Source: Phycisphaerae bacterium
Lineage (GTDB): Bacteria > Planctomycetota > Phycisphaerae > SM23-33
NCBI GenBank assembly: GCA_016931655.1
Contig: JAFGEJ010000200.1
Span: 6,015-70,014, forward strand
Reading direction: 5' to 3'
DNA: 64,000 nt
Part shown: positions 59 to 43,753 of the stretch, one piece after another
How the letters are laid out: each line of letters opens with the position of its first letter
Position numbering within the stretch: the first letter of the stretch is position 1
Program-made: the position numbers and the translations under genes
The notes under the pieces: generated by a model
The model's database searches: none
Told to the model about the DNA's origin: nothing
What the model saw: only the letters and a program-made list of their open reading frames with translations

Positions 59-3000
59 TTGACGGTATTTCGTCACCTGGGTACGGCCATTCGGAATTCG
101 CAGGACCAGGCCGCCGCGGATCTTCTGTTCCGGGAGGCGGAACTGCGTTTTGAGAGGCTTCGTCGGGATCTCGATTTAAGTCGTCCCCAGCAGGACGAAC
201 TACGGCAACGAGGCTGGCAGGCGCTGGAACAGGCCGTTCGCAAGGACGGACGGCATCTCAAGGCGCGGAAAATGCTTGCCGATTTGCGCGGGACCGTCGC
301 CCAGTACAATCCGGACAGTTCCAAGGCCTGGCTGGAATACATCGAGGAACTCGACGGCGTACTTGCCGTTGACCCTCAGGACGCCGCGATCTATTTCCGT
401 CGCGGACAGGCGTATGCGCACCTGGCGATGACGGACCCCCAGCAGCAGAACAAAGCCGTGGAGGATTTTCGCAAAGCCGTCGAACTGGACAAGACCAAGG
501 TGGAATACTGGGATGCCCTGGCGAGATACCTTGTGTCCATCGACCGCATTTCAGAGGCGGAACAAACCTTCCGGGAGGCGATTCAGGCCAACCCCAACAA
601 GGCGATGCTGCGCGTCAGTTACGCCCGGCTTCTTCGCGGACAAAAACGTCTGGAGGAAGCGAATAAACTCACCCAGGAGGCCATTCAATGCGAGCCATCC
701 AGCCCGTTGGGATATCTCGATCAGGCCGGTGACCTGATCCGCGGGAGGAAATTCGACCCGGCGGAAGAGGTTCTGGAAAAAGCCCGGCAGATTGACAAAA
801 CCGACCCGCAGGTCTACGCGCAGTTCGTTACCCTCTACAGGCTCAAAAAAGATCTCCCCGCCGCGGATCGTATCGTGCGCGAGGGCATCGCGGCGCTGGA
901 TCAAAAAGACGCGGAAGCCGAACCGGACGACAAAATGGCCGCTTTGCGTCGCGGACAGACCCGCGCGATACTGAATTACCTGCTGGCGGAAGTCCTGCTG
1001 GATCAATACGCCTTAAGCAAGGATGAGAAGGAAAAGGAAAAACTTCTTCAGGAGTCGAAAGAGCGCCTCGAAGTTCTTGAGACGCTCAGTCCGAACCAGT
1101 TGCAACAACATCAAATCGCCGGGCGCATTTCCTACTACGAGCAGAAATGGCCCGAAGCGAGGGAATCCCTGGAAAAAGTGGTGGAATATGACACCACACC
1201 ACGCACGGCGATGCTGCTGCTGAACGTCTATCGCCGACTTGGCATTCCCGGGCAAAGTGAAAAACTGGCGGAGAACTTTTTGAAGCGTCGTATTTCTCCC
1301 AGGGTGCGGTTGTTGTTTTTGTTGGAATTGGCGCAACTGCAACTCGATTTGAGGGAATACGATAAAGCACAGGAACTGGTCCACCAGGCGGAGAAGATCG
1401 ATTCCAAGAACGAAAACATTAAGAGATTGCAACAGGCGCTGAACGTCTATCGCGGGAAAACAACGGAAGTTCTTTCCGAGGAAGGCGACGCCGGCCGGGT
1501 GGCGCGCGCCATGCTCTTTCGGCGCGTCCAGGACCTGATATTGAACGACCAGTATGATCAGGCTGAAACGGTTCTGGAAACAATGCTTCAGCACAATCCG
1601 CACGATTTACAGGCGCTGGCACAATTGCTTGCACTGCTGATGGAGAGTCAGAAGCGAGACAAGGCCCTGGAGTGGTTGTCCAAGTCCAGGGCATTGGACC
1701 CGGAAAACGAAGACCTGAAGCGCTTTGAGGACCTGTTAAAAGAATCCTCGATGGAAAAACGGTATGCAATTGAAATGGGGTATGTAGATCGGGCGCCGAC
1801 GGAAGACAAGCTGAACAAAGCCCTGCAGAAATGGAACATTGCAAGGCGATATCGCCGGGAGGAAGACGCTCGAAACTATCTGGATGAAGCCGAAGCGATC
1901 GATCCCAACAATAGTATCGTGGTCAACCTTCGTTTCCGCCAGGCCCTGGCGGGAGAGAACTGGACGGCGGCGGAGGAACTGATCGAACGCATCCCGGAAG
2001 GAGAATCGGGGTATCTTCGGAATCTGCGACGTGCGGAACTGGCGATGGCTCGCGGAGAGGCGGAAACTGCCGGCAGGAAGAAAGAACAGGCAGACGCACA
2101 GTACACCAAGGCGCTGTCTTATCTCCAAAACGTGGTCGAAGCCGCCCCGCATCTGCCCGCCCCCCGCCTGCTGATGGCGGAATCCTATCTCCGGTTGGGC
2201 AAGCGAGAAGACGCACGAAAGCAGTTTCGGGAATGTTACGAAAACAATCGTCAAAATCTTCAAGCCGTTGTGGGTCTGGCCCAACTTGCTCAGGACACCG
2301 GACGTTACGCCGAACGAAACCGCTGGATCGAAGAGGCGTATCAGATTCCTTCCGGAAAGGCGGATCCCTATGTGCGCGAACAATATCTCCAAATCCTGGA
2401 ATCCGACCCCAAAAATCTGGGCGAAGTGATTCACAAACGCGAACAGGTTCTTAAGCATGATCCGGACAACCTGATCAACGCCTTCCGATTGGCGGCGGCG
2501 TATGAGAAATCCGGGCAGATCAATCGCGCGCAGGAAATGATCGAGTACCTTTATCAGCGCACGCCGAACAAAATAACAATCGCTCCGATGTTGGCGGACC
2601 TGTATCTGCGCATGAAACAGCCCCTCAAGGCGGATGAAATGTTCTCCGACCTTCTCAAGGACGCCAAAACCGCGGTGGAGAAAGCCGATATTCGAATCGC
2701 CTACGGGGACTTTCTCGCCCGAAACGATGAAGACGCCGCGGTGCGTATGTACGAAAAGGCCGTCGCCGAGGAAGGGGAAGACGGAACTCACGGATTACGG
2801 GCATTGTCGAATTTCCGGGCGGCTCAGGCGCAGTTTCTGGCGTCCCGGGGAAAAACCACCGAAAGCCAGACAAGGTGGAAAGAATCCATCGACCTGCTGC
2901 AGACCGTCATCAAACGATTGCAGAAAAGCGTGGATTCCCTGCAAGCCAAAGCCGACGGCGACCCGTCCAATTCGGCGGCGCAACAAAATCTTACGCGGGC

Positions 3001-4513
3001 ACAACAGGAACTTCAGCAAATGCGACTGGCTCTCCTGGGGCGGTATATCGATTCCGATCAGTACGACAATGCCGTTGCGGGTTATCAGAAGATGATTCAG
3101 GCCGATCCGGAGGACGCCCAGGCCCGGCTGGGGCTGGGGTTGGCGTATCTGGAGAATGACCAGCTCAATCAGGCCGAGGAACAGTTTACCGAGGCGATCA
3201 AAATCCAGTCGGATCTGCCCAACGCCTATCTACTTCGATCCCGCGTGTACCAGTCCAAAATGGAACTTTCCAGAGCCGCCGCGGATATTGCCGCCTGCGC
3301 GGACTTAACGGGGAACGTCGAACAAAAAATGGATTTGGCGAGAATTTACGAAGCCATGAACGATTTCCAGCAGGCCGGCCGAATCTATGACACGATTATT
3401 GCCGACAACCCCGAGTATTTTAACGCATATGAAAAACTGCTGAATCTGTTCCGCCAGCAGAAGCGATGGAGCGCCCTGGAAGCTCTGGCGAACAAGGGAA
3501 TGGACGTTTTTCCCGAAATTCCCGCGTTTGCCCTGCAACTGGCCGCCGCCGCGGAAGAACAAGGCGACAAGGATTCGCAGCGGCATTGGCTGGAGCGAGC
3601 GGCGGAAACAGCGCCCGATGCCATAAGTGTGGTGCGACGCTATTGGGTGCATCTTCTGGAGAACCGGGACTACATTCGGCTGCAGCGGGAGGCGCAGAAA
3701 TACGGCCGGCGACCGGCGCAGACCTTCGGCGCCCAGGCGGTTCTGGCCGCCGCCCAGGCCAAACAAAATCCCGGCGACGCCAAATCCTTCCAGGCGCTTC
3801 TGTCTCTCCTCCAGTCCGCGAAAAATTCCACGGATGTGTATTTTGTGGGACATCTGTTTGAAGAAGCTTACGGCTCGGCAAAGATCGCTTCGGCGTCTTC
3901 CGACATATTGAAGGCGAGACCCGAAGACTGGAATCTCCATGCTTTTCTTGGGGACGTATGCCTTCAGGAAAAACAGTACCGCCAGGCGGAGCGTTATTAT
4001 CAAGAGGCGTTGAAATTATGTAAAAACACGTCCGGCCAGATTACTCTGAATCTGCGTTTGGCACAATTGTATAGCAGCGAAGGCGCGTATCCCAAGGTTG
4101 AAGAGCAATACCTTGCCGTGTTGAAAAACAACCCCAACCACAGAATGGCACTGAACAATCTTGCGTATACATACATTGATCAGTTGAATCGTCCCGAAGA
4201 GGGGCTCAAACTGATCCAGCGGGTAATGAAAGCCACTCCCGGTGATCCGAACCTGGTGGACACCTATGCCTGGGCGCTGGTGAAACTGGAGCGGTTTGAA
4301 GAAGCCCGCGCGATGTTCGAAAAGGTGGTGGAAATCGGCGGCGCCGGCGGCGCCGAGCGGTTGTATCACATGGGATACGTTCTGGAAAAAACCGATTCCC
4401 CACGGGAAGCGGAAAGATATTACCGGCAGGCGCTGGAAGTCGCCCGCGCCCAGAAAAACGTGGAACTTCAGGCGACGATTGAAACCGCCATGGCGAGAGT
4501 CGAGCGGAAATGA
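59..4513 (+). CDS. Very large TPR-repeat protein (over 1480 aa). First in-window start is TTG at 59, but the frame stays open back to nt 2, so the gene may be 5'-partial.
   Basis: Single 4.4-kb ORF whose translation is a long run of TPR-like helical repeats (the track sequence reads like many ~34-aa A/L/Y-rich helical repeats, which I did not enumerate). There is no in-frame stop upstream of 59. Its stop is 17 nt before the next gene, which has AAGGAG ahead of it. Confidence 0.75.
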   Translation: MTVFRHLGTAIRNSQDQAAADLLFREAELRFERLRRDLDLSRPQQDELRQRGWQALEQAVRKDGRHLKARKMLADLRGTVAQYNPDSSKAWLEYIEELDGVLAVDPQDAAIYFRRGQAYAHLAMTDPQQQNKAVEDFRKAVELDKTKVEYWDALARYLVSIDRISEAEQTFREAIQANPNKAMLRVSYARLLRGQKRLEEANKLTQEAIQCEPSSPLGYLDQAGDLIRGRKFDPAEEVLEKARQIDKTDPQVYAQFVTLYRLKKDLPAADRIVREGIAALDQKDAEAEPDDKMAALRRGQTRAILNYLLAEVLLDQYALSKDEKEKEKLLQESKERLEVLETLSPNQLQQHQIAGRISYYEQKWPEARESLEKVVEYDTTPRTAMLLLNVYRRLGIPGQSEKLAENFLKRRISPRVRLLFLLELAQLQLDLREYDKAQELVHQAEKIDSKNENIKRLQQALNVYRGKTTEVLSEEGDAGRVARAMLFRRVQDLILNDQYDQAETVLETMLQHNPHDLQALAQLLALLMESQKRDKALEWLSKSRALDPENEDLKRFEDLLKESSMEKRYAIEMGYVDRAPTEDKLNKALQKWNIARRYRREEDARNYLDEAEAIDPNNSIVVNLRFRQALAGENWTAAEELIERIPEGESGYLRNLRRAELAMARGEAETAGRKKEQADAQYTKALSYLQNVVEAAPHLPAPRLLMAESYLRLGKREDARKQFRECYENNRQNLQAVVGLAQLAQDTGRYAERNRWIEEAYQIPSGKADPYVREQYLQILESDPKNLGEVIHKREQVLKHDPDNLINAFRLAAAYEKSGQINRAQEMIEYLYQRTPNKITIAPMLADLYLRMKQPLKADEMFSDLLKDAKTAVEKADIRIAYGDFLARNDEDAAVRMYEKAVAEEGEDGTHGLRALSNFRAAQAQFLASRGKTTESQTRWKESIDLLQTVIKRLQKSVDSLQAKADGDPSNSAAQQNLTRAQQELQQMRLALLGRYIDSDQYDNAVAGYQKMIQADPEDAQARLGLGLAYLENDQLNQAEEQFTEAIKIQSDLPNAYLLRSRVYQSKMELSRAAADIAACADLTGNVEQKMDLARIYEAMNDFQQAGRIYDTIIADNPEYFNAYEKLLNLFRQQKRWSALEALANKGMDVFPEIPAFALQLAAAAEEQGDKDSQRHWLERAAETAPDAISVVRRYWVHLLENRDYIRLQREAQKYGRRPAQTFGAQAVLAAAQAKQNPGDAKSFQALLSLLQSAKNSTDVYFVGHLFEEAYGSAKIASASSDILKARPEDWNLHAFLGDVCLQEKQYRQAERYYQEALKLCKNTSGQITLNLRLAQLYSSEGAYPKVEEQYLAVLKNNPNHRMALNNLAYTYIDQLNRPEEGLKLIQRVMKATPGDPNLVDTYAWALVKLERFEEARAMFEKVVEIGGAGGAERLYHMGYVLEKTDSPREAERYYRQALEVARAQKNVELQATIETAMARVERK

Positions 4514-13208: not shown

Positions 13209-13318
13209 ATGTCATCCTGAGCGGAGCGAAGCGGAGTCGAAGGACCTCACGCCTAACTACCCGTAAGATCCTTCGACTTCGTGTCTCGCTTTGCTCGACA
13301 CTTCGCTCAGGATGACAA
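13209..13318. repeat. MITE/REP-like palindromic element, copy 1 of 3, with GTCATCCTGAGCG...CGCTCAGGATGACAA termini
   Basis: Termini ATGTCATCCTGAGCGGAGCGAAGCGGAGTCGAAGGA ... TCCTTCGACTTCG...CGCTCAGGATGACAA are internally palindromic. The same termini recur at 24098 and 40621. Confidence 0.8.
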
Positions 13319-16783: not shown

Positions 16784-18568
16784 CTACTGAATTTTCGGGC
16801 GTTTGCGGGGATCGCTCCGCTGGAATCGCGCGTGCAGTTCGCGAAGGCTCTCGTCGTCCAGCGGGCCGGTTTTTAATTCCTGCACGCTGTGGGTTTCCTT
16901 TCGGTGCAGAATCCGGTCCACCGCCTCCTGAAGCGTGCGATGGTGATTTCCTCGCCGTTGGCCGGCCAGGGACAGTTCCGTCAGCGTCGGGGCGTAGCCG
17001 ACCATTTCCTCATCGGCCAGCAGTTCCTCCAGGGCGAGTCGGCCGTCCGTGCCCAGCGGCCAAATGCGTTCTGCAAGACGTTGCAGCATGGCGTCCTGAA
17101 AGTCAGCCGGGTCAATGCGTTCGGCGGCCTGGTCGAACAGTTCCGGTTCGTCCAGCAGCACCTCCAGCACCACGCGTTCGGGGTTCGTCGTCACGCCGAT
17201 CGCAGCCCGGCCGTCCGCGGCTGGGCGGGCGGACCGGTCGGGCCGAATTTTTCGCCCCAGGCGTCGCATCTGTTGCTGCACTTCCGCCGCCGGGGCGTTG
17301 AGCAGGTGGGCGATGTGCTGGGCCAGGCTCTGCCGGCGGATTTCGTCGATCGCGCCGTACGCGCCGCTGGCGACCACGAGCGTCAGGAATTCCTCCATCA
17401 GGCGGTTCCGCTCCGCGAGATTTCCCCCCGCCGACAGGCAGGCGGCGAACTGGCGATCCCAGACGTATTGCAGCGCGTCGGGCGCCTGGTCGATCAGCGC
17501 CTGGAAGGCTTCTCCGCCCTCGGCAAGGCTGAAGTCGCACGGGTCTTTCCCGGCTGGGATCGTCGCGACGCGCACGTGCATCCGCTGGGCGAGGAACAGC
17601 TCCAGCGCCCGCTGGGCAGCCGCGGCGCCGGCCTGGTCCGCGTCGAACACGAGCACCACCTCCGGGGCGTATCGTCCCAGCAGGCGCACGTGTCCTTCGG
17701 TTAAAGCCGTTCCGAGGGTCGCGACCACGTTCGTCACGCCCGTCTGGTGGGGCAGGATCACGTCGAGATAGCCTTCCACGACGACGGCCTGGCGGCGCTG
17801 CACGATACTCTCGCGCGCCTCAGCCAGGCCGTACAGAAGCGAGGATTTGTCGAACAGCGCCCCTTCCGGGCTGTTGAGGTACTTTGCCCGTTCGTCGGCC
17901 GCCAGCGCCCGCCCGCCGAAGGCGACCACGCGCCCCGTAACGTCGCGGATCGGAAACATCAGCCGCTGACGGAAATAATCGTAGCAGCCGCTCTTGCCCT
18001 CGCGCCGGCGCACCAGCCCCGCAGCCACCATCTGTTCCTCGGAGAATCCCTTTCGCCGCCCGGCGGACAGAAACGCCTCCCAGGAGTCGCAGGCATATCC
18101 GACGCCGAACCGTTCGATGGTCTCGTCACTCAGCCCCCGGCTGTGGGCGTAGCCCAGCGCGTCCCGCCCGGCCGGTTCGCGCAACTGGCGCTGAAAATAC
18201 CCACCCGCGAATTCCGTCACGGCGGCCAGGTCGTTTTTGCTCATTCCGTCGGCGACGGTCTCCGGCGCATAGTCTTTCGGCAAGGGAATGTTCACCCGCT
18301 CGGCAAGGCGGCGAATGGCTTCGGGAAAGCTGAGCTTTTCATAGCCCATCAGAAACTGCGCGGCGTTTCCTCCCGCGCCGCAGGCGAAGCATTTGTAAAT
18401 CTGCTTGCCCGGCGAGACGTACATGGAAGGGTTTTTGTCCTCGTGGAACGGACAAAGCCCCACGAACTCCCGGCCTTTGTGTTTCAGCGCGACGTATTGC
18501 CCGACCAGCTCGACGATGTCCGTCGCCTGGAGCACCTGCTGAATGAACATTTCGGGAAACCGGGCCAT
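16784..18568 (-). CDS. dnaG: DNA primase
   Basis: Zinc ribbon CPFHEDKNPSMYVSPGKQIYKCFACGAGGNA, then TOPRIM (VVVEGYLDV...VLVFDAD) and a C-terminal helicase-interaction region. ATG at 18568 with GAGGAA upstream; the track's upstream TTG at 18589 is less likely. Confidence 0.9.
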   Translation of the reverse strand: MARFPEMFIQQVLQATDIVELVGQYVALKHKGREFVGLCPFHEDKNPSMYVSPGKQIYKCFACGAGGNAAQFLMGYEKLSFPEAIRRLAERVNIPLPKDYAPETVADGMSKNDLAAVTEFAGGYFQRQLREPAGRDALGYAHSRGLSDETIERFGVGYACDSWEAFLSAGRRKGFSEEQMVAAGLVRRREGKSGCYDYFRQRLMFPIRDVTGRVVAFGGRALAADERAKYLNSPEGALFDKSSLLYGLAEARESIVQRRQAVVVEGYLDVILPHQTGVTNVVATLGTALTEGHVRLLGRYAPEVVLVFDADQAGAAAAQRALELFLAQRMHVRVATIPAGKDPCDFSLAEGGEAFQALIDQAPDALQYVWDRQFAACLSAGGNLAERNRLMEEFLTLVVASGAYGAIDEIRRQSLAQHIAHLLNAPAAEVQQQMRRLGRKIRPDRSARPAADGRAAIGVTTNPERVVLEVLLDEPELFDQAAERIDPADFQDAMLQRLAERIWPLGTDGRLALEELLADEEMVGYAPTLTELSLAGQRRGNHHRTLQEAVDRILHRKETHSVQELKTGPLDDESLRELHARFQRSDPRKRPKIQ

Positions 18569-18902
18569 GCAATCACGTTCCTCGCGCAAGAAAGGGCCTT
18601 CCGAACACTCGTTTCAGGGGATATTCTATCCTCCCAGCCGCGGCGTGTCCAAACAACTCCCCGCGAGTGGAATTTGTAAGCCGTCTGAGATCCTATTGTG
18701 AGGACTACGACCTTTTATCCCAAATCACACTGTTGAGAAATCATCCACGGATTACACTGATTTTTTAGAGATTTCACGGATTCCTTCTATAATTTTGTGA
18801 AAATATCTTTTCCGTGTAATCCGTTTTTTCATTCGTGAAACTTGCCTACCGGCAGGTAGGTCCGTGGACTCTTTTTACAGACAGCATAACCGCGAAAGAA
18901 AT

Positions 18903-20300
18903 ATGTATCGAACGGACGACACGATTGCCGCCATTTCTTCGGCGGCCGGCTCGGGCGCTCGGGCGCTGGTGCGCCTTTCCGGGCCGGAGGCTGTGGCGCT
19001 GGCGGAAAAGCTGTTTTTCCCCGCCGACGGGCGGCTGGCGGACCTGGGGGGATTTCGATTCGCCGACGGGCGCGTGCGGATTTCAGGCCTGCCGGGCGAA
19101 CCGCTGGAGACGCCCGCTCGAGCGTATGTCTTTCGCGCCCCGCAGAGCTATACGCGCCAGGACGTCGTGGAAGTGCATCTGCCCGGCTGTTCCGCCCTTG
19201 CGCGGGCGCTGCTGGAGGCGTTCCAGGCCGCCGGCGCACGGCAGGCGGAACCGGGCGAATTCACGCTGCGGGCCTTTCTCCACGGGCGGATCGATCTTTC
19301 GCGGGCCGAGGCCGTCGCCGACGTGATCCACGCCGCCGACGAGACTCGCTTGCGGGCGTCGCTGGCGGCGCTGGGGGGTGAAGTTCACCGCCGCACGGGT
19401 CGGTCCGCCGAGGCAATTGCCGAAGCCCTCGCGACGGTGGAGGCGTCCATCGACCTGGCGGAGGAGAATCTGCAACTGGCCCAGCCGGGCGAACTGGCGG
19501 GAATTCTGCACGCCGAGGCGAAGACGTTACGCGGCATCGCCGAGACGGCGCTGCATCTGCCCGACGCCGCGGAAACGCCCACCGTTGTTTTGGCGGGCCG
19601 GCCCAACGTGGGCAAAAGCTCCCTGCTCAACGCCCTGACCGGCTGCGATCGCGCGATTACTTCCGCGCTGGCCGGCACGACGCGCGACGTGCTCAGCGCC
19701 CCGCTGGAACTGCCCGGCGGCGCGACGGTGGACCTGCTCGACGCGGCTGGGTTCGGCGCGACGGACGACGAACTGGCGACTGTGGCGAACAACGCCGCCG
19801 ACGCCGCCGTCGCGCGGGCCGACGTGGTCTGCTTCGTTACCGACGCCGACGCGTCGCGCGACGACGACGAACTGCTGGAGCGCCTTGGTAGAGTCAATCC
19901 GTCCGCCCCTCTGCTGCGGCTGCGGAGCAAGTGCGACCGTCCGGCGACTTCGGTAAAGCAGCCGGCGGGCGATTCGGCGATCCTTCTGACTTCCGCTCAT
20001 ACCGGCGAGGGCTTACCGGCTGTCAAACAGCGGCTGGCGGAACTGCTGCACCTGGAGGCGCAGCGCTCCGGCGAGGCCCTGGGCCTGCACGACCGCCAGC
20101 GCCGCTGCCTGCACGCCGCCGCGGAGGCCTGCCGGGCCGCCGGCAATCTGCTTTCGCGGGCGATAACCGTCGCCGATACGGCTGAGCTGACGGCCCTCGA
20201 ACTGCGCGAAGCCCTGCGACACCTCGGAGGGATTTCCGGGCAGGTCGTTACCGAAGATATCCTCGGAAAAATCTTCGCCCGGTTCTGCGTGGGAAAGTAA
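18903..20300 (+). CDS. mnmE: tRNA modification GTPase MnmE (TrmE)
   Basis: Start at MYRTDDTIAAISSAAG. G-domain GRPNVGKSSLLNALTG. C-terminal ...ILGKIFARFCVGK, the conserved CxGK tail. Confidence 0.9.
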   Translation: MYRTDDTIAAISSAAGSGARALVRLSGPEAVALAEKLFFPADGRLADLGGFRFADGRVRISGLPGEPLETPARAYVFRAPQSYTRQDVVEVHLPGCSALARALLEAFQAAGARQAEPGEFTLRAFLHGRIDLSRAEAVADVIHAADETRLRASLAALGGEVHRRTGRSAEAIAEALATVEASIDLAEENLQLAQPGELAGILHAEAKTLRGIAETALHLPDAAETPTVVLAGRPNVGKSSLLNALTGCDRAITSALAGTTRDVLSAPLELPGGATVDLLDAAGFGATDDELATVANNAADAAVARADVVCFVTDADASRDDDELLERLGRVNPSAPLLRLRSKCDRPATSVKQPAGDSAILLTSAHTGEGLPAVKQRLAELLHLEAQRSGEALGLHDRQRRCLHAAAEACRAAGNLLSRAITVADTAELTALELREALRHLGGISGQVVTEDILGKIFARFCVGK

Positions 20301-20420: not shown

Positions 20421-21872
20421 ATGAAGAAGCAGATGTATCGAGCGGTATGGATACTTTCGGCGGTTTTCGCCGTCCTGACGGCTGGGGCGCGGGCGCAAAA
20501 TTTACCCGAAAGCCGTCCGGCCGTCGCGGACAATCTCGCCCGGCTGGTCGAGGCGTTTGAGCGGGCAAACAAAGCTCGCGTGGGCGTTTCGGTGGTCGAT
20601 CTGCGGACGGGTCAGCCGATCTTCGCTCATCGGCAAGGCGAGGCGATGATCCCGGCCAGCAACCAGAAGATTCTGGCCGCCGCCTTCGCCCTGGATCGCC
20701 TGGGGCCACAGGGCGTGTTTGCCACGGCGGTATACGCAGCCGGGCGCGACATCGTCGTAACCGGCCAATACGATCCGCTGCTGGGCGATCCGATCCTGGC
20801 GCGACGCGAGGGAAAAAGCATCTACGCCGAACTCGATCGCTGGGCCGAGGCGGTCCGCGCCGCGTATGGCGAGGCGATTCCCGGCGACCTGATCCTGGCC
20901 AGCCGGTCCACGTCGGCGGGTCTTCATCCGCCGGCCTGGCCTGTGCGTCATCACGGCCGCTGGTACGGGGCGGCTGTGGCGGACCTGAACTTCCACGACA
21001 ACTGCTTCGACGTGACGTTCGTTGAACGGGACGGAACCATTCAGCCCGCCGTGGCGCCGGCGAGTCGATATATTCGCGTTCTCAGCGAGTTGAAGCTTCA
21101 GCCGAGGGGCCGGCACCTCTGGCGGCTGAGGGAATCGCCCGACGGCGCGACGTTGACACTCACGGGCCAAATCCGTGGCCCGGCTGCCGATCCGCTCAGC
21201 ACGCCGATGCGCGATCCCCGCATTACGCTGGGGCGCGTACTGGCGGGCCGACTGGCACAGGCGGGCGTTCGCGTCGGAGGGCAGTTGCGCATCCTGCCGG
21301 CGGACCGAGTGAATCTCGCCGGCGCTCGCCTGTTGGCCAAGAGCGAATCGACGCTCCGCGACGTTCTGCATCGCGCCAACAAGCGCAGCCTGAACCTGGC
21401 CGCCGAGTGCATGCTGCTCCGCGCCGGCGACGGCGCGTGGGCCGGCAGCGCACGGCAGATGCACGACGTGTTGGTGGAACGCTTCGGCCTGGACGCCCGA
21501 ACGCTGGCGATTCACGACGGGTCGGGGCTGGCGGAAGACAACCGCGTTACCAGCGGCGACCTGGCGAAGCTCCTGGCCGCCCTGAGCAATGGCCCATGGG
21601 CGGAGATGTTCCTGGCGAGCCTGCCCCGAAGCGGCGTGGACGGATCGCTGAAACGCCGGCTGAGGGAGGAACCGTATCGCGGGCGGATCGCCGCCAAGAC
21701 CGGAACCCTCGCCGGTGTCCGCACGCTCAGCGGATACGTCCTGGACGCGGGCGACGACAAAAAACCCGTTATCGCGTTTTCCATTCTCGCCAACGACCTG
21801 TCCAGCCGGGCGCAAGGCCTCGCCAAATCCCTCCAGGATCAACTCTGCCGGGAACTCGTGGACGCCAGATAA
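20421..21872 (+). CDS. dacB: D-Ala-D-Ala carboxypeptidase/endopeptidase, PBP4 / peptidase S13 family
   Basis: Signal peptide after MKKQMYRAVWILSAVFAVLTAGARA. SxxK motif ASNQK, KTG motif KTGTL. About 480 aa. The start could be the upstream ATG at 20370. Confidence 0.8.
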   Translation: MKKQMYRAVWILSAVFAVLTAGARAQNLPESRPAVADNLARLVEAFERANKARVGVSVVDLRTGQPIFAHRQGEAMIPASNQKILAAAFALDRLGPQGVFATAVYAAGRDIVVTGQYDPLLGDPILARREGKSIYAELDRWAEAVRAAYGEAIPGDLILASRSTSAGLHPPAWPVRHHGRWYGAAVADLNFHDNCFDVTFVERDGTIQPAVAPASRYIRVLSELKLQPRGRHLWRLRESPDGATLTLTGQIRGPAADPLSTPMRDPRITLGRVLAGRLAQAGVRVGGQLRILPADRVNLAGARLLAKSESTLRDVLHRANKRSLNLAAECMLLRAGDGAWAGSARQMHDVLVERFGLDARTLAIHDGSGLAEDNRVTSGDLAKLLAALSNGPWAEMFLASLPRSGVDGSLKRRLREEPYRGRIAAKTGTLAGVRTLSGYVLDAGDDKKPVIAFSILANDLSSRAQGLAKSLQDQLCRELVDAR

Positions 21873-21895
21873 ATTCTCAGAGCCTGTATGAAAAT

Positions 21896-21980
21896 GTGTC
21901 GCGGGCCTCTGGCCCGCGCGTATCGAGGGCGTCCCGCCCTCGGAAAGGTCCCATTTGCGCGGGTAAGATACCCGCGACAC
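21896..21980. terminator. Cluster of GC-rich hairpins between convergent dacB-like and secA-like genes, likely bidirectional terminators
   Basis: GCGGGCC-TCT-GGCCCGC, GAGGGCG-TC-CCGCCCTC and GCGCGGGTA-AGA-TACCCGCG stem-loops. Confidence 0.5.
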
Positions 21981-22007
21981 TTGAAAATGCACTTTTCATA
22001 CACGTTC

Positions 22008-23996
22008 TCAGTGCTCCCGGCCGGCGAAGCCGAGGTATTCGTCCAGCCAGTCGTCGTTTTTGAGCACGCCTTTTCGCTGACGCAGGGCCTGTCGCTCGGC
22101 CTTGCGCTGGGCGTGGTCGAAAAGGCGGCGATTCCACTTCGTGGAAATTTCTTCCATCGCCTGGCCGTGACGTTTGCGCAGCACGCCGGAAAAGTACGGC
22201 GTGTGTCGTTCGACGAGTTCGTCTTCCAGGCAGACGATCGCTTCGGCGCTGCCCGGATCGCCCTGGCGGGCGCAGCGGCCGAAGAGTTGCCGGTCGATGC
22301 GCCCGGCTTCGTGCCGTTCCGTGGCGATCACGTGCAGCCCGCCGAGTTCCGCCACGCCGCGCCCGAGTTTGATGTCCGTTCCACGCCCGGCCATGTTCGT
22401 CGCGACGGTAATTCGGCCGGACTGGCCGGCCTGGGCGACGATTTCCGCCTCTTCCTTGTGGCGCACGGCGTTGAGGATCTGGCAATCCAGTCCGCGGGCC
22501 TCCAGCAGTCGGCCGAGGTGCTCGCTGGCGCGCACGCTCCGCGTGCCGATCAGCACGGGCCGGCCCCGCCGGTGCATCGCCTCGATGCTCTCGACGATGG
22601 CGGTGAACTTGGCCTGTTCCGTCGCGAACACGCGGTCGGGCGCCTTGGTGCGAATGCAGGGGCGGTTCGTCGGGATCACCACGACGGGCATGTGATAGAT
22701 CTGCCAGAATTCCGCCCGGGCCTCAGCGGCGGTTCCCGTCATGCCGCACAGCCGGCGGTACAGCCGAAAGAACCGCTGGAAGCTGATCCGGGCGTAGGTG
22801 TCCTTCGGCGCCTGTACTTCCAGGTTTTCCTTGGCGCTGACGGCCTGGTGAAGTCCGTCGCGCCATTCGCGGTCGGGCATCAGTCGGCCGGTGAACTCAT
22901 CCACGATAACGACCTTTTCCTCCTGGATGACGTACTGCTTTTCGAGCTGGTAGAACACGCGGGCGGTCAGGGCCTGGTTGACGAGCTCCTCCCGCCGCCG
23001 CGCGCCGGCCCACACGCCGCCTAAGGGTCTGGCAAGCTCCGCGAGTTTTCGCCGCCCAGCCGGTGTGAATTCGACCTCCCGATAGCGCGGGTTGACCTTG
23101 TAGTGTTCCTTCGGTTCCAGTTGCGCCGCCAGTTTGGCCGCTTCGGTGAAGGCCTCCACCTGTTCGGCGTTGGGCGCTTCGCCGGAGATAATCAGGGGCG
23201 TGACGGCTTCGTCAATGAGAATCGAATCGACCTCGTCGACGATGGCGTAAAACAGGCTCCGCTGCACGAGGCGGTCCGTGCCCGATCCGGCGCCTTTGGC
23301 GATCTTCGCCAGCAGCGCCTCGGGCAGTGATTTGACCCGTCCCAGCGCCAGGCGGTCGCGGAGGTAGTCGGCGGAGACTTCCTTGTTCGTGCAGTAGGTG
23401 ATGTCGGCCTGGTAGGCCAGCTTGCGCTGCGGCGGGGGCGTTTCCTGCTCGAGGAAGTCGCACCGCAGCCCGCAGGTGCGATAGATGTTCCGCATGGTCT
23501 CCGCGTCGCGCTTGGCGAGGTAGTCGTTGGCGGTCACGACGTGGCAGCCCTGGCCTCGCCAGCCGGCGATGGTCGCCGGGAGGGTGGCGGTGAGGGTTTT
23601 GCCCTCGCCGGTGGCCATTTCAGCGATGCCGCCGTCGGCCATCACCAGCGCGCCGGCCACCTGCACGGGGAAGGGCTTCATGCCCACCTGGCGCTGGGCC
23701 GCCTCGCGGATCATCGCGTAGGCGTGGTCAAGGTGCTCGGCGGTGTCGCGTCCGCGGCGGAAGGCGACCCGCAAATCCTGGAGCTTTCCCCGCAAGGCCG
23801 CGTCGGCGAGGCTTTTGTATTGGTCTTCCAGGGCGACGATTCGCCGGGCTCGCGCGAGATACGACCTGGTGTGCAGCGTCAATCGCCGCGCCAGGCCGGC
23901 TGCGTGATCCCAGGTTGCATCCAGGCCCTTGGGCAATTCCTTGCCCCGGGGACTCCGCGAAAGCATCTGCCAGGTTGTACTTGCCGCGGTGGACAT
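22008..23996 (-). CDS. SecA-family ATPase paralog with NBD1, PPXD and NBD2 but a truncated helical scaffold and no wing domain or C-terminal tail
   Basis: 662 aa. N-terminus and motor motifs align to SecA (MKPFPVQVAGALVMADGGIAEMATGEGKTLTATLP...VVTANDYLAKRDAE...TNMAGRGTDIKLG...). Ends at ...HAQRKAERQALRQRKGVLKNDDWLDEYLG, which is where the HSD begins in E. coli SecA. Followed by terminator hairpins, not by a shifted continuation. Confidence 0.75.
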   Translation of the reverse strand: MSTAASTTWQMLSRSPRGKELPKGLDATWDHAAGLARRLTLHTRSYLARARRIVALEDQYKSLADAALRGKLQDLRVAFRRGRDTAEHLDHAYAMIREAAQRQVGMKPFPVQVAGALVMADGGIAEMATGEGKTLTATLPATIAGWRGQGCHVVTANDYLAKRDAETMRNIYRTCGLRCDFLEQETPPPQRKLAYQADITYCTNKEVSADYLRDRLALGRVKSLPEALLAKIAKGAGSGTDRLVQRSLFYAIVDEVDSILIDEAVTPLIISGEAPNAEQVEAFTEAAKLAAQLEPKEHYKVNPRYREVEFTPAGRRKLAELARPLGGVWAGARRREELVNQALTARVFYQLEKQYVIQEEKVVIVDEFTGRLMPDREWRDGLHQAVSAKENLEVQAPKDTYARISFQRFFRLYRRLCGMTGTAAEARAEFWQIYHMPVVVIPTNRPCIRTKAPDRVFATEQAKFTAIVESIEAMHRRGRPVLIGTRSVRASEHLGRLLEARGLDCQILNAVRHKEEAEIVAQAGQSGRITVATNMAGRGTDIKLGRGVAELGGLHVIATERHEAGRIDRQLFGRCARQGDPGSAEAIVCLEDELVERHTPYFSGVLRKRHGQAMEEISTKWNRRLFDHAQRKAERQALRQRKGVLKNDDWLDEYLGFAGREH

Positions 23997-24097
23997 GAAA
24001 AAGGGATTCTACCATACAGACACGGCGAGCACAGAGAGGATGTGAAAAAAGAATCGGCGAGGTGTGCGAAGATTTTATCTGGCATTTCACCCCGAAC

Positions 24098-24219
24098 TGT
24101 CATCCTGAGCGAAGGCCCGAACGAAGTGAGGGCCGCAGTCGAAGGATCTAAAGCCTCAAAAGCATCAGGTCCTTCGACTGCGGGGCTCGCTCTGCTCGCC
24201 CCTCCGCTCAGGATGACAA
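24098..24219. repeat. MITE/REP-like palindromic element, copy 2 of 3
   Basis: TGTCATCCTGAGCGAAGGCCCGAACGAAGTGAGG...GTCGAAGGATC ... GGTCCTTCGAC...CCGCTCAGGATGACAAT. Confidence 0.8.
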
Positions 24220-24280
24220 TCTATAGTATGGCCGCCAGATAAAATCCTCGCATACTTGGTGAATCGGCGAGATTTGTATA

Positions 24281-30132: not shown

Positions 30133-33100
30133 TCAGGCGTCCTGGCCGCGCAGAGCGCGGGTCACGGAACGGCAGAGATCTTCAGGAGAAAAGGGTTTCT
30201 GGAGGAAGTTCACCTTGGCGAAGTGGATTTCGCGGCGGAGGGTTTTTTCGTCGGTGAATCCGGAGATGAACAGAACGCGCAGGTGCTTGTATTGTTGTTG
30301 AAGCATTTTCGCCAGCGTCGGCCCGCTGGTTCCGGGCATCACGACGTCGGAGACCAGCAGATCGATGGTTCGGCCGGCCTGTTCGACAAGGCAGGGCGCA
30401 TCTTCGGGCACACCGGTTTCGAGCACCGTGTAGCCGTGTTCCCGCAGAACGCGAACCACCAGTTGTCGGACGGTGGCGTCGTCTTCGACGACGAGAATGG
30501 TTTCGTCGCCTCTTTCGGCGGGTGTGGTTTCGCCCAGGGGCGTTTCGACGTCCAGGGGCGCCGAGACCCGCGGCAAGTACATGCGGAACGACGTTCCGCG
30601 GCCGGGGTAACTTTCCACGTGGATGTGTCCGTCGCTCTGCTGCACGAAGCCGTACACCATCGAGAGTCCCAGGCCGGTGCCTTTGCCTTTCTTTTTCGTG
30701 GAAAAGAACGGCTCAAAGATCTGTTCGGTGGTTTCGGCGTCCATACCCAGGCCGGTGTCTTTCACTTCGATCATCACCATCGGCTGGGTCAGCCCCAGGG
30801 CCCGCAAGTCCGGGACGTCCTCGGCGTTTTCGATGTTGGCCGTGCGAATCACCAGGTCGCCACCGTTGGGCATGGCGTCGCGGGCGTTGATGGCAAGGTT
30901 CATCACCGCCTGTTCGAGGCGGTTGGGGTCCACGCGGATATGCCCCGCGTCTTTCTGCAGCTCCAGTTGCAGGCGAATGTCTTCTCCCACCAGGCCCAGC
31001 GACTTGCGGATGTCTTCGAGGATTCGGTTGGGATTGACGACCTGGGGCTTGAGGATCTGTTTACGGCTGAAGGACAGCAGTTCGCTGGTGAGCGTGGAGG
31101 CCTGGCGCGTGGCGTGGTCCACCTGCTCGATGCATTCCCGCACGGGGCTGGCTGCGTCCAGGTCGCGCAGCAGCAGGTCGCAGTATCCGCGAACGACGGT
31201 CAGTTGGTTGTTGAAGTCGTGCGCGATGCCGCCGGCCAGTCGGCCGATGGCTTCCATTTTGGCGGCCTGGCGCAACTGGGCCTCCAGGTGCGCCTCCTTG
31301 GAAACGTCCCGCAGGATGTGCACGAAATGGGTGATGTCTCCGCCCTCCTCGTTTCGGACGGGGGAAAGGTTTACCTCCACCTCCAGCGCCTCCCCGCCTT
31401 TGCGGCGGACCGCCATGCGCTTCAGCCAGGCGCGGCCGTCGAGCATGGCCTGGTACATGTTTCGGAGGGAATCCGGCTCGTTCGGATCGTTGTAAAACAG
31501 GCTCATGTTATGATCGAGCACGTCTTCGGTTTCGTATCCGAGCATTTTCGCGACGCCCTGGTTGACGTATTCGACGGTTCCGTCGCTGCCGGTGATGACG
31601 ACGGCTTCGGAGGCCTGTTCGATCGCCGAAGCAAGGCGCACCCGCTCCCGCTCGGTGTTCACGCCGGTGATCAGGTTCGCCAGGGTGGCGGCCAGGAGCG
31701 TCAACACCCGCTGCTGCACGGGGGAGATTTCCTTTCCGGATATGAGGGAATCGGCGGAGAGGTATCCGATGACTTCATGTCCGTTCCAGAGCGTCGCCAC
31801 GGCGTTGGGGCCTTCGCCGACCCGTTTTGCCCTGTGGTCAAACAGGTTGTGAACTCGATAGTACGTCTTGGGCGACGATTCCTGCAGCGCCTGACGAACC
31901 AGCGCATCGCCCGCAATGGACAACTGATTTCCCCGCTCATCGCGAAGAATGCCGTTTTCATCCACGCCGTAGGACCCGTACACGATGTTCGGATCGTCGC
32001 TCTTGAACCAGATTCCCAGGCGTTCGAATCCCAGGCGCTCGTGGGCCAGTTCCACTGCCCGTCGGCAGAGTCCTTCCCAGTCGCGCTGGGTTGTCAAATC
32101 CACGATGACCTCGTGCAGGGTGGTGAGTTTTTCGCGCGACAGTCTTTCGGTTTCCTCGGATTTCCGTAGGGACTCCTCGGCCTGTTTGCGGGCGGTGATG
32201 TCCTGGAAGTTCACGATAATGACGTTTCGATCTCCCAGGGAAATTTTCCGAAAACTTCGGAGCACCGGAACGTCACGCCCGTCTTTGGTGCGAATTTGTC
32301 CCTCTACGTTCACAAATTGTTCTTCGTCGGATTCCTGCAGAAGGTGGAGTTCCGGAGATTCCACGCTGAACAACTGGCACGGCCGGCCGAGCAGTTCGTC
32401 CCGCGCGTATCCCGTCAACTGGCAGAGGACTTCGTTAACGTCTTCGACGCACCCCTTTTCGTTAACGATGTAGCTGTAACCGGGCAATCCTTCATACAAC
32501 ATGTGCCAATGGGCCTCGCGCTGCCGGAGCAATTTCTCGCGTCGACGGCGGCGTAGCATGCTGGCCAGCAAAAGCAGGATCAGGAGCGTCAGCCCACACA
32601 AGGTTGCCCCGGCAGCCAGCAGAACGTTCCGATGGCGCTGATAAAACGACGGATGCGGAAACAGAATTTCCGCGCCGGCCGGCAGACGGGAGACGTCCAC
32701 GCCGAAGCGGCGCAGGGCCCGGCCGTCAAAGACGTAGCGGTTGGGGCTTTGGATGTGGACGGGGATCGCGTCAGCGGATTCGCCGTTCAGGATGCGCCGG
32801 GCGAGTTTGCCTGCTTCCTCGCCCTGCCGTCGGCCACTGACGACCTTCCCGCCCAGAACGCCCGTGTTCATCGTGTATTCCCAGCACGTAAAAATCGGCG
32901 CCCGGGATCGTTCCGCCAGGCGGGTAATCCCGGCGATTTCGTCCACGGAGTACCCGTGTTTATCGCGGTTCAGCGCCAGGCGCAACACAAGGGCGTCGGA
33001 AGGCAACTGCTCCACTTCTCGCAGAAGCTCTTCCATATCCCAGTCTTCCCGGATCGTGCAGGGAATCTGCAGCGGCGCCTGCTGGGCGGCCTGGAGAAAC

Positions 33101-33729
33101 AACTGCTTGTTCACCTGTCCCGTCGTGGTTTTGTCGGTGATGACGAACAGGCTCCGGGCCCTGGGAAACAACGCCTGGGCCGTCTGGAGCGTCTCGCCGA
33201 CCTCGATCGTCTCGACGACACCGGTATACCCCGTTTTCCCCTCGAGCATGTCGGGCGTGTAATTGTTGATGCCGCAAAATACCACCGGAACGTTCGGAAA
33301 CAGCCTCTCCCGATACCGGAAAAGAAAATCCAGGGCATTGTTGTCCGAAGCAATAATGACGGCAAAGGAGGTGTTTTTGTACTTTTTCTCGTAGAAGTCC
33401 GCCAGTTCCGCGAAATACTCCGGGCTGGAGAGAAACTTCGTGTCCATGTGTTCCGTGTAAATGTCCACGTTTTTATCTTTGCCCAGAATGTCCAGGATGC
33501 CTTTATGCAGGCTGGAAGACCAGGGCGAATCGTGATGGTACGAATCCAGGTGCAGGACGCGCAGCGCCTCCGCCGCCGGGCGCGACTGCGCCAGGATGGG
33601 CCCGGAGATCATCGCAAGGGCAAAAAACACGAGTCCCCACCGGAAGACGGCGCCGCCTCGCGGAACCATCGCGAATTCCCTCCGTCCCAACATGCCGTTT
33701 CCTGTAGCCATGAGTTCAAATCCGCCCAC
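30133..33729 (-). CDS. Large hybrid sensor histidine kinase: periplasmic ABC-substrate-binding-like domain, TM, PAS/GAF modules, HisKA, HATPase, C-terminal receiver
   Basis: About 1190 aa. N-terminal signal/TM FRWGLVFFALAMISGPILAQS, then a solute-binding-like domain and the TM LLAAGATLCGLTLLILLLLASML. H-box IAHDFNNQL. ATPase GLGLSMVYGFV. Receiver TILVVEDDATVRQL. The start could be ATG 33669. Confidence 0.8.
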   Translation of the reverse strand: MGGFELMATGNGMLGRREFAMVPRGGAVFRWGLVFFALAMISGPILAQSRPAAEALRVLHLDSYHHDSPWSSSLHKGILDILGKDKNVDIYTEHMDTKFLSSPEYFAELADFYEKKYKNTSFAVIIASDNNALDFLFRYRERLFPNVPVVFCGINNYTPDMLEGKTGYTGVVETIEVGETLQTAQALFPRARSLFVITDKTTTGQVNKQLFLQAAQQAPLQIPCTIREDWDMEELLREVEQLPSDALVLRLALNRDKHGYSVDEIAGITRLAERSRAPIFTCWEYTMNTGVLGGKVVSGRRQGEEAGKLARRILNGESADAIPVHIQSPNRYVFDGRALRRFGVDVSRLPAGAEILFPHPSFYQRHRNVLLAAGATLCGLTLLILLLLASMLRRRRREKLLRQREAHWHMLYEGLPGYSYIVNEKGCVEDVNEVLCQLTGYARDELLGRPCQLFSVESPELHLLQESDEEQFVNVEGQIRTKDGRDVPVLRSFRKISLGDRNVIIVNFQDITARKQAEESLRKSEETERLSREKLTTLHEVIVDLTTQRDWEGLCRRAVELAHERLGFERLGIWFKSDDPNIVYGSYGVDENGILRDERGNQLSIAGDALVRQALQESSPKTYYRVHNLFDHRAKRVGEGPNAVATLWNGHEVIGYLSADSLISGKEISPVQQRVLTLLAATLANLITGVNTERERVRLASAIEQASEAVVITGSDGTVEYVNQGVAKMLGYETEDVLDHNMSLFYNDPNEPDSLRNMYQAMLDGRAWLKRMAVRRKGGEALEVEVNLSPVRNEEGGDITHFVHILRDVSKEAHLEAQLRQAAKMEAIGRLAGGIAHDFNNQLTVVRGYCDLLLRDLDAASPVRECIEQVDHATRQASTLTSELLSFSRKQILKPQVVNPNRILEDIRKSLGLVGEDIRLQLELQKDAGHIRVDPNRLEQAVMNLAINARDAMPNGGDLVIRTANIENAEDVPDLRALGLTQPMVMIEVKDTGLGMDAETTEQIFEPFFSTKKKGKGTGLGLSMVYGFVQQSDGHIHVESYPGRGTSFRMYLPRVSAPLDVETPLGETTPAERGDETILVVEDDATVRQLVVRVLREHGYTVLETGVPEDAPCLVEQAGRTIDLLVSDVVMPGTSGPTLAKMLQQQYKHLRVLFISGFTDEKTLRREIHFAKVNFLQKPFSPEDLCRSVTRALRGQDA

Positions 33730-40620: not shown

Positions 40621-40754
40621 GTTGTCATCCTGAGCGAAGTCGCGTGTGAGCGAAGCGAACATCGCGACGAAGTCGAAGGACCTTATGGGATTGAGGAGGC
40701 GAGGTCCTTCGGCTTCGACTCTCGCTACGCTCGAGTCTTCGCTCAGGATGACAA
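40621..40754. repeat. MITE/REP-like palindromic element, copy 3 of 3, inserted between hom and the apgM-like gene
   Basis: GTTGTCATCCTGAGCGAAGTCGCG...GAAGTCGAAGGACC ... GGTCCTTCGGCTTCGAC...GTCTTCGCTCAGGATGACAA. Confidence 0.8.
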
Positions 40755-43556: not shown

Positions 43557-43753
43557 GCAATTCTCTACCGCGGCGTCCGAAGAAGAAGGCCGAAAACTAC
43601 CATTTTTCCGATAAAAATCGGCGGGGCGCCTTCCGATATCTTTTTTGATGGGGAAGGGGTGTGTCCACCGGGCCGGACGTACCACCGGGAGGAATCCTGT
43701 GTATTTCGGACCACGTAGGGCCTGCGAACATTCGGGGAACGGGGAAAAACTTC

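Follow-up and report, generated by a model that had tools for sequence, protein, structure and literature searches.

We analyzed a 64-kb stretch of DNA, called the window here, from a metagenome-assembled genome (MAG) of a Phycisphaerae bacterium (contig JAFGEJ010000200.1 of assembly GCA_016931655.1), and we focus on one of its genes, which encodes a short paralog of SecA. The gene is an ATG-to-TGA open reading frame (ORF) at 22008..23996 on the minus strand that codes for 662 amino acids (aa) plus the stop codon. It was assigned as a short SecA ("secondary SecA_DEAD domain protein") from the ORF, its Pfam and NCBIfam domains and an identical database protein (P0001), and the product is 100% identical to GenBank MBN1943331.1 from a Phycisphaerae bacterium MAG. 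In the window it lies between cobA/hemD upstream and a gene for an S13 peptidase downstream. A preliminary description made from the sequence had proposed a 662-aa SecA paralog with a motor and a preprotein cross-linking domain (PPXD) but without the wing, two-helix finger and zinc tail, and the analysis below bears out this outline while changing several of its details.

Domain architecture

The motor and PPXD are readily recognized. Pfam SecA_DEAD matches aa 43-431 (E 2e-103, 346 bits) and defines the first nucleotide-binding domain (NBD1; 22704..23870, minus strand), which encloses the PPXD, matched by SecA_PP_bind at aa 279-386 (22839..23162, minus strand; E 1.3e-26, 93.7 bits). The P-loop_SecA match begins at aa 446 (E 7e-57) and marks NBD2 (aa ~446-619; 22140..22661, minus strand). 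The alignment on which these assignments also draw contains 21 diverse short forms and three full-length SecAs, and other alignments bring the number of family members to 21-37. Its invariant columns include Walker A (G130-E-G-K133) and Walker B (D254-E-x-D257) in NBD1 and, in NBD2, TNMAGRGTD (533-541), R566, Q570, G573-R574, R577-Q-G579 and G582. The DEAD-type motor motifs, namely Walker A and B and motifs V and VI with the arginine fingers R566, R574 and R577, are complete.

Both ends of the protein depart from canonical SecA. Although the N-terminus had been described as intact, the first ~45 residues (23862..23996, minus strand) are family-specific in the alignments and take the place of the canonical amphipathic N-terminus; they carry an LPxG-LD motif at aa 21-26 and score 41-55 in predicted local distance difference test (pLDDT) over aa 1-30 of the structure model presented below. 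It is possible that this region is a docking segment. A second family feature is an insertion of ~26 residues in NBD1 after "DYLRDRL" (aa ~216-241; 23274..23351, minus strand; alignment columns 265-290; pLDDT ~52-55), which is found in 21 of 21 aligned short-family members and in none of the three canonical SecAs aligned.

At the other end, residues 22-607 of Bacillus subtilis SecA align to the short SecA (E 1e-146), which then ends. SecA_SW is represented by just 36 residues (aa 617-652; model positions 2-37) with a score of 18.8 bits (E 0.0018), compared to a gathering cut-off of 26.7. This sole remnant of the domain is a single long scaffold helix (aa ~620-662; 22011..22139, minus strand), delimited by Pfam, the structure model and motif conservation, and its end bears a family motif, R641...D648-x-W-L...L655-G-F657-x-G659. 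The protein had been thought to stop at a NAQRKAE-like sequence where the scaffold domain begins. In fact HAQRKAE occupies aa 628-634 and is followed by 28 further residues, and alignment with Clostridioides difficile SecA2, in which K578-N625 form the long scaffold helix, indicates that nearly the whole first scaffold helix is kept and that the short SecA ends at the point of wing-domain onset (the equivalent of residue ~620). The canonical C-terminus (...CPCGSGKKYK...) is absent from the short forms in the alignment and among the tree sequences.

These losses are reflected in the scores against curated models. The canonical SecA models of NCBIfam give 632.8 bits against a cut-off of 800 (TIGR00963) and 656.9 against 814 (NF009538), and the SecA2 models TIGR03714, TIGR04221, TIGR04397 and NF012136 give 529.9 against 930, 466.4 against 725, 581.9 against 1085 and 444.4 against 1100, respectively. 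All these matches are strong, but since roughly one quarter of each model is without an equivalent in the short protein, they stay far under the cut-offs.

Gene boundaries

An S13 D-Ala-D-Ala carboxypeptidase gene is convergent with the short secA and ends at 21872, 135 bp downstream, leaving no space for ~200 further codons. When full-length SecAs from 13 organisms were used to look for a continuation, they aligned to the window solely at 22038..23867, and the alignments ended at residue ~606-761 of those proteins. Within their last 330 residues, the portions past the scaffold helix had no significant match in the whole 64 kb, so that no trace of the wing, two-helix finger or zinc tail was found anywhere in the window. 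With the canonical C-terminal regions unmatched and the convergent gene so close, a frameshift or hidden continuation is ruled out, in agreement with the preliminary description. The 662-aa ORF is a real gene and neither a frameshifted nor a decaying copy.

The 135-nt spacer between the convergent genes (21873..22007, assigned to neither strand) consists of a GC-rich nested hairpin with a minimum free energy of -68 kcal/mol (z = -7.35; none of 200 shuffled sequences was equally stable). Of the terminator hairpins reported earlier to follow the gene, the hairpin itself is thus upheld, but a simple consensus scan made no call of a classical intrinsic terminator on the short secA strand. The spacer hairpin is probably a bidirectional terminator.

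No canonical secA lies within the 64-kb window. The 1198-aa ORF at 30133..33729 was considered for this role and is instead a hybrid histidine kinase. One search, made with the planctomycete full-length SecA P0236, recovered proteins that were mostly Brocadiia-like, and none of them shared a contig with a short SecA. The contigs of one entry (P0312, 873 aa) and of a short-SecA locus (L010) are both 21122 bp long; this is a coincidence, as the gene list of L010 has no room for a gene of 873 aa.

Conservation of the short form

The preliminary description had asked whether the truncated form is conserved in related genomes, and it is. All 120 of the closest protein clusters (67-87% identity, from Phycisphaerae and Planctomycetota MAGs) are 650-679 aa long. 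Representatives at 50% identity were searched exhaustively, and of the 150 best matches 140 have lengths of 627-721 aa and most align to the last residues of the query; full-length SecAs (831-1079 aa) show up only at ~45% identity, the level of the most distant short forms. The 21-37 aligned members have intact ATPase motifs, the family N-terminus, the insertion and a common end point with its own C-terminal motif. The ratio of nonsynonymous to synonymous substitution rates (dN/dS) between the short secA and its closest relative is 0.13 at a dS of 0.68, similar to other family pairs, and indicates that purifying selection acts on the gene, including copies that have become separated from their partner genes. 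The conserved length, end point and ATPase motifs across a deep family, together with this ratio, exclude the decaying duplicate that had been offered as one explanation.

Annotation of the family is uneven, as the database proteins P0035, P0088 and P0256 illustrate. The usual name is "preprotein translocase subunit SecA", but two members are "prepilin peptidase" at NCBI, and the RefSeq copy from Parendozoicomonas (WP_281648033.1) is labeled "hypothetical protein".

Partner genes in relatives

In relatives, the short secA belongs to a module in which genes for a ~290-320-aa HlyD adaptor, a ~120-aa DUF3467 protein, a ~630-aa GAF-transmembrane (TM)-HlyD protein and a ~725-aa protein precede it in this order. 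The ~725-aa partner, referred to here as M50-HlyD, combines a PqqD-like N-terminal domain, ~6 TM segments with similarity to Peptidase_M50, and a C-terminal HlyD domain. Across the partners, the domain matches are to HlyD_3/HlyD_D23, GAF, PqqD and Peptidase_M50, and the NCBIfam model for daptide intramembrane metalloproteases matches M50-HlyD with E-values of 1e-44 to 1e-46. In 10 of 10 M50-HlyD sequences from four phyla, HExxH and N-x-N-P-L-x-x-D-x-Y-Y are invariant; the partner is apparently an active intramembrane metalloprotease.

Profile hidden Markov models (HMMs) built from the four partner clusters were run against all fetched loci. A scan of a genome collection with universal-motif patterns, which for that reason recovered mostly canonical SecAs, added at least 15 short-form loci and is not an estimate of frequency. 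Wherever a locus of the module clade includes flanking sequence, the short secA has the M50-HlyD gene directly upstream, at a distance of at most ~170 bp, and in several loci the two genes abut or overlap at their stop and start codons. Sixteen independent loci, from four phyla, are linked to the module and two are unlinked; the linked ones represent Phycisphaerae, Tepidisphaerales, Opitutaceae, two Gammaproteobacteria MAGs, one Burkholderiales MAG and Achromobacter piechaudii NBRC 102461. Among the matches listed in the same scan, none of 60 loci with a clearly full-length canonical secA had an M50-HlyD gene beside it. ATP-binding cassette (ABC) domains were absent from every module gene and listed neighbor, as was also concluded in 2015 (PMC4452313), and the surroundings of the module-linked short secA showed neither SecY2 nor accessory Sec genes. 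PADLOC gave no match for the short SecA or any partner, and a defense system was rejected.

The small, soluble DUF3467 protein is fixed in Phycisphaerae modules (L005 5508-5861, L002 5481-5861, L001 5369-5761, L009 5031-5399, L091 4339-4737 and L093 10001-10360, in the coordinates of each locus). Over 120 clusters its identity is 72-94%, above the conservation of the SecA. The idea that it is a SecB-like chaperone is unsupported: it has no sequence relative in the PDB, and hhalign against Escherichia coli SecB, with an approximate SecB sequence, gave a probability of 0.15%. Its AlphaFold model has a pLDDT of 51, too poor for use. In an Isosphaeraceae MAG, a DUF3467-domain ORF (L042 14656-15615) lies ~2.7 kb downstream of a canonical 1227-aa secA, which hints that DUF3467 may be tied to SecA-type motors more widely.

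Possible cargo genes flank some modules (L001 1-4296 and 12341-22037; L002 3638-4330 and 12372-13022; L003 8278-9033; L091 11308-12573). On a 2.4-Mb contig the module is flanked by two giant ORFs, one of >3531 aa with a faint Beta_helix match and one of >7198 aa. PEP-CTERM-domain proteins, one with a dockerin-like match, are encoded beside other modules.

The detached copy

Modules of relatives encode three HlyD-family proteins and the window encodes none; the four partner HMMs and tblastn found no match to the partners in its 64 kb. The closest relative (P0002, 86% identical) is likewise solitary, with amt, P-II and type III glutamine synthetase genes as neighbors, and both unlinked copies terminate in ...NDDWLDEYLGFAGREH. 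Linkage to the module persists in relatives that are 77% and 73% identical. In a neighbor-joining distance tree (622 columns, without support values), the window protein falls inside the module-linked Phycisphaerae short SecAs, beside Opitutaceae and proteobacterial members, and canonical SecAs are separate. The linked relatives and the nesting in a linked clade indicate that linkage was lost recently, in a small sub-clade.

A sister MAG (GCA_016929245.1) shows where the partners can be. It carries the four partner genes without secA on contig 209 (JAFGJE010000209.1) and a solitary short secA, that of P0002, on contig 27. The operon on JAFGJE010000209.1 is intact (HlyD, DUF3467, GAF-HlyD and PqqD-M50-HlyD, with HEFGH kept), with a convergent sugar kinase gene coming next. 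After its last gene, at L093 14610-14900, lie long GC-rich inverted repeats with CCCGGGGTGTGAACGGAGTGAACCCCCGG-type arms, which occupy the exact place of secA in intact modules. The window's own MAG appears to encode a module-type DUF3467 partner on another contig: the DUF3467 protein MBN1943400.1 is at least 90% identical to that of the sister MAG, is encoded on a 4.2-kb contig, and follows MBN1943331.1 by 69 accession numbers. We conclude that the lone short secA of the window is a detached module subunit whose partners appear to be kept elsewhere, and is not a relic. The two-contig example in the sister MAG documents such a split module directly.

Planctomycetia have short SecAs (~650-730 aa) of a second lineage, at loci L030, L055, L061 (on the Pirellulaceae SH467 chromosome, CP197412.1), L070 and L085. 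It has a different conserved C-terminus, ...MGQDPYLD..., and in the distance tree lies apart from the module-linked clade and closer to canonical SecAs. No HlyD or M50 partner lies within 10 kb at these loci, and their neighbors are not conserved; the lineage may represent an independent truncation of SecA.

Predicted structure

An AlphaFold2 model of the short SecA, with 37 family sequences as alignment input, has a pLDDT of 76.6 and a predicted template modeling score of 0.72. It shows a folded motor and PPXD and, near the C-terminus, a helix (620-646). Despite strong conservation, confidence is low at the N-terminal ~23 residues, in the insertion (216-241) and over the final 16 residues (647-662, pLDDT <50). 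We infer from the model that these conserved segments may become ordered only on a partner. The model superposes best on SecY-engaged, closed-clamp SecA, with template modeling scores of 0.79 for 6ITC, 0.78 for 5EUL and 0.77 for 3DL8 at a root-mean-square deviation of ~4 Å, compared to ~0.66 for free SecA forms; the engineered E. coli fragment SecA-N68 (5K9T) is also among the structural matches. So far as models tell, a polypeptide clamp between PPXD and NBD2 can therefore form, which answers a question posed in the preliminary description.

Other features of the window

The 284-bp region between the short secA and cobA/hemD (23997..24280, minus strand), characterized from its sequence, inverted repeats and fold, holds a palindromic repeat element of ~120 nt (24098-24218) with a predicted fold of -88.9 kcal/mol (z = -10.5). 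This copy sits inside a second inverted repeat of 22 nt (24062-24083 / 24234-24255). Two more copies of the element, which has inverted GTCATCCTGAGCG termini, are present at about 13211-13316 and about 40624-40752, and the termini occur six times in the window where 0.14 occurrences are expected. The element may be of the repetitive extragenic palindromic or miniature inverted-repeat transposable element type (REP/MITE-like). Two large hybrid sensor kinases with PAS, HisKA, HATPase_c and receiver domains are encoded at 30133-33729 (minus strand) and 43661-46192 (plus strand), the former with an N-terminal domain that resembles an ABC-type substrate-binding protein. Other genes include a 1484-aa TPR-repeat protein (59-4513), dnaG (16784-18589), mnmE (18864-20300), tRNA-Thr and tRNA-Leu, and the window looks like ordinary chromosomal DNA.

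Discussion

The family of the window gene and its probable role have been published. Kamneva, Poudel & Ward (PLoS One 2015; PMC4452313) described "secondary SecA_DEAD domain proteins" whose SecA_SW is lost wholly or partly, forming a clade apart from canonical SecA and sister to actinobacterial SecA2. They reported a module of GAF-HlyD, Peptidase_M50 and HlyD/Biotin_lipoyl proteins with an OEP/TolC-type gene beside some copies, and proposed that the SecA_DEAD ATPase stands in for the ABC transporter of type I secretion and that the M50 membrane protein may be the pore (PMC4452313). Some copies, they remarked, are encoded apart from their partners, which are then elsewhere in the genome; complete genomes with a secondary SecA_DEAD protein were reported to carry a canonical SecA as well (PMC4452313). 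The preliminary description missed this family, the type-I-like module and the detached status of the window copy. The window gene, a further member from a Phycisphaerae MAG, differs from that clade in nothing essential: it shares SecA_DEAD and PP_bind, an absent or fragmentary SecA_SW, the partner set of its relatives, the taxa and the occurrence of unlinked copies, and is itself one of those not encoded beside GAF-HlyD, Peptidase_M50 and HlyD genes. Measured against the accessible text of the 2015 paper, our analysis adds the PqqD-like domain, the daptide-type protease similarity and the invariant catalytic motifs of the M50 partner, as well as DUF3467 in Phycisphaerae modules, the family terminal motifs, the insertion and the split module. 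DUF3467 was not found in the accessible part of PMC4452313, and a full-text search for DUF3467 likewise did not return that paper. We found no follow-up study in the literature.

We consider it probable that the short SecA serves as the ATPase of a type-I-like machine for processing and export that works independently of SecY. The protein keeps the motor with its two lobes, the PPXD as a polypeptide clamp and a single scaffold helix. The wing, two-helix finger, zinc tail and amphipathic N-terminus, through which canonical SecA is coupled to SecY, SecB, lipids and ribosomes, have been lost. In such a machine it would be the cytoplasmic, energy-supplying subunit. The membrane parts would be the fusion of a PqqD-like domain, a ~6-TM M50 protease with HExxH and a periplasmic HlyD domain, the GAF-TM-HlyD protein, and the small HlyD adaptor; in Phycisphaerae the small soluble DUF3467 protein would be a further component. 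The PqqD-like domain may recognize a leader on a cargo peptide or protein, the clamp of the short SecA would grip the unfolded chain and drive it by ATP hydrolysis, the M50 site would cut the leader off, and the HlyD conduit together with an outer-membrane factor would let the product out. At the N- and C-termini, conserved unstructured motifs could dock the short SecA onto cytoplasmic domains of the partners. In the window genome, the ATPase gene would be transcribed alone, apart from four partner genes on another contig. A more specific proposal, which we put forward only tentatively, is that these steps make up a distinct secretion system, with leader selection by the PqqD-like domain, threading by SecA, leader removal by M50 during passage, and a hetero-oligomeric HlyD tunnel across the outer membrane. 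The leader-recognition and processing step is added here; the replacement of an ABC transporter by a SecA-type ATPase was proposed in 2015 (PMC4452313).

Several observations weigh against an export machine of this kind. The PqqD and daptide-protease matches of the M50 partner are under the curated cut-offs, the docking role of the terminal motifs is based on conservation and low model confidence, and the case for partners in the window's own MAG is the accession proximity of a single DUF3467 gene. M50 proteins are known as proteases and are not known to act as translocation channels, which leaves the proposal without an explanation for passage through the inner membrane. No cargo was identified; the genes that flank modules vary (PEP-CTERM, giant or unrelated proteins), and an outer-membrane factor was not searched for. 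The only expression data are for Methylobacterium extorquens AM1, in which the secA, M50 and HlyD genes are barely expressed in exponential growth (PMC4452313), and we found no experiments on any family member in the searchable literature.

The main rival is an unfoldase-protease device for signaling or quality control, in which the short SecA would feed a membrane or cytoplasmic substrate to a site-2-type M50 protease for regulated intramembrane proteolysis, with the GAF domain as a sensor and without export. The invariance of the M50 catalytic motifs and the presence of a GAF sensor domain fit this function, neither a channel-forming transporter nor a cargo gene was identified at module loci, and the poor expression of the operon in standard growth would suit a conditional regulator (PMC4452313). 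We nonetheless regard it as unlikely: three separate HlyD-type periplasmic adaptor domains per module are hard to explain without a conduit that spans the periplasm, and OEP/TolC-type genes lie beside some modules (PMC4452313). It is considerably less probable that the short SecA is an accessory motor that still uses the housekeeping SecYEG, exporting a particular set of proteins in the manner of the "SecA2-only" systems known from Actinobacteria and Firmicutes. The sister position to actinobacterial SecA2 in the published tree (PMC4452313), the superposition on SecY-bound SecA conformations and the solitary position of the window gene would agree with such a role, which the preliminary description had raised as a SecA2-like export factor. 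Yet the two-helix finger and wing, the SecY-contacting parts that C. difficile SecA2 retains, are missing, the canonical N-terminus is replaced, the protein scores 444-582 bits against SecA2 cut-offs of 725-1100, failing all four models, and relatives are linked to HlyD and M50 genes at 16 loci with no SecY2 or accessory Sec genes seen. The broader suggestion of an accessory ATPase, made alongside it, remains a sensible reading.

The detached position of the gene invites the thought that in this sub-clade it acts apart from the module, as a solo ATP-dependent cytoplasmic chaperone or holdase. The window gene and its closest relative are both unlinked, with different neighbors, and clamp and motor are intact, but the sister MAG retains a four-gene module with its catalytic motif, the MAG of the window appears to keep at least DUF3467, the terminal motifs are unchanged in both unlinked copies, and their dN/dS equals that of linked copies. 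We therefore give this role little chance. Finally, nothing beyond the short length itself favors an artefact, in which an error of sequencing or assembly cut a full-length secA short, or a decayed duplicate that persists as a pseudogene. The window holds no C-terminal remnant in any frame, the convergent gene ends 135 bp downstream, the same end point and C-terminal motif recur across hundreds of independent assemblies, and the dN/dS of the window gene against its closest relative is 0.13, which makes artefact or decay exceedingly improbable.

The short SecA shares with canonical SecA ~43% identity over NBD1, PPXD, NBD2 and the first scaffold helix, the ATPase motifs and a fold with template modeling scores of 0.66-0.79; it differs in lacking the wing, two-helix finger and CPCGSGKKYK zinc tail, in its N-terminus and in the ~26-residue insertion in NBD1. 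Like the SecA2 proteins of C. difficile (6SXH) and Mycobacterium tuberculosis (4UAQ), it is a second SecA paralog without a C-terminal tail and neighbors SecA2 in the published tree (PMC4452313). However, C. difficile SecA2 keeps the two-helix finger (G706-N781), well beyond the point where the short SecA ends, and M. tuberculosis SecA2 merely shortens the wing, compared to the loss of both finger and wing in a protein whose relatives are linked to HlyD and M50 genes. SecA-N68, an engineered C-terminal truncation and the nearest artificial analogue of the short SecA, has nearly the same boundaries, comprising the motor and PPXD without the C-terminal third. This laboratory fragment, in work of Karamanou and colleagues from 1999, is reportedly a deregulated ATPase incapable of translocation. 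What sets the natural short family apart from it is one scaffold helix, its terminal motifs and purifying selection. With type I secretion and tripartite efflux (HlyB-HlyD-TolC) the module shares HlyD-family adaptors and a co-encoded ATPase, but instead of an ABC transporter it has a soluble SecA-derived ATPase, its only polytopic membrane protein is the M50-type protease, and it has three different adaptor paralogs and not one. Giant proteins of Omnitrophota and Actinobacteria also embed a SecA-like motor (West-Roberts et al., bioRxiv 10.1101/2023.11.21.568195). Those motors likewise have DEAD and preprotein-binding domains without scaffold or wing, occur alongside a normal SecA and have a proposed non-Sec role; they are parts of proteins that run to tens of thousands of residues and make up a fast-evolving clade of their own, whereas the short SecA is free-standing.

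SecA is usually viewed as working only with SecYEG. Here a large, old and strongly conserved family has dropped the contacts to SecY, SecB, lipids and ribosomes, and its travel with HlyD adaptors and an intramembrane protease suggests that the SecA motor has been reused in another envelope machine. The label "preprotein translocase subunit SecA" is thus misleading for genes of the short family. The machine, a prediction now ten years old, is found in culturable, genetically tractable bacteria, such as M. extorquens AM1 and A. piechaudii, and is therefore directly testable. If the proposal is true, it would unite a leader peptidase in the style of ribosomally synthesized and post-translationally modified peptides (RiPPs), a Sec motor and a type I conduit in one apparatus that is widespread in Planctomycetota, Verrucomicrobiota and Proteobacteria.

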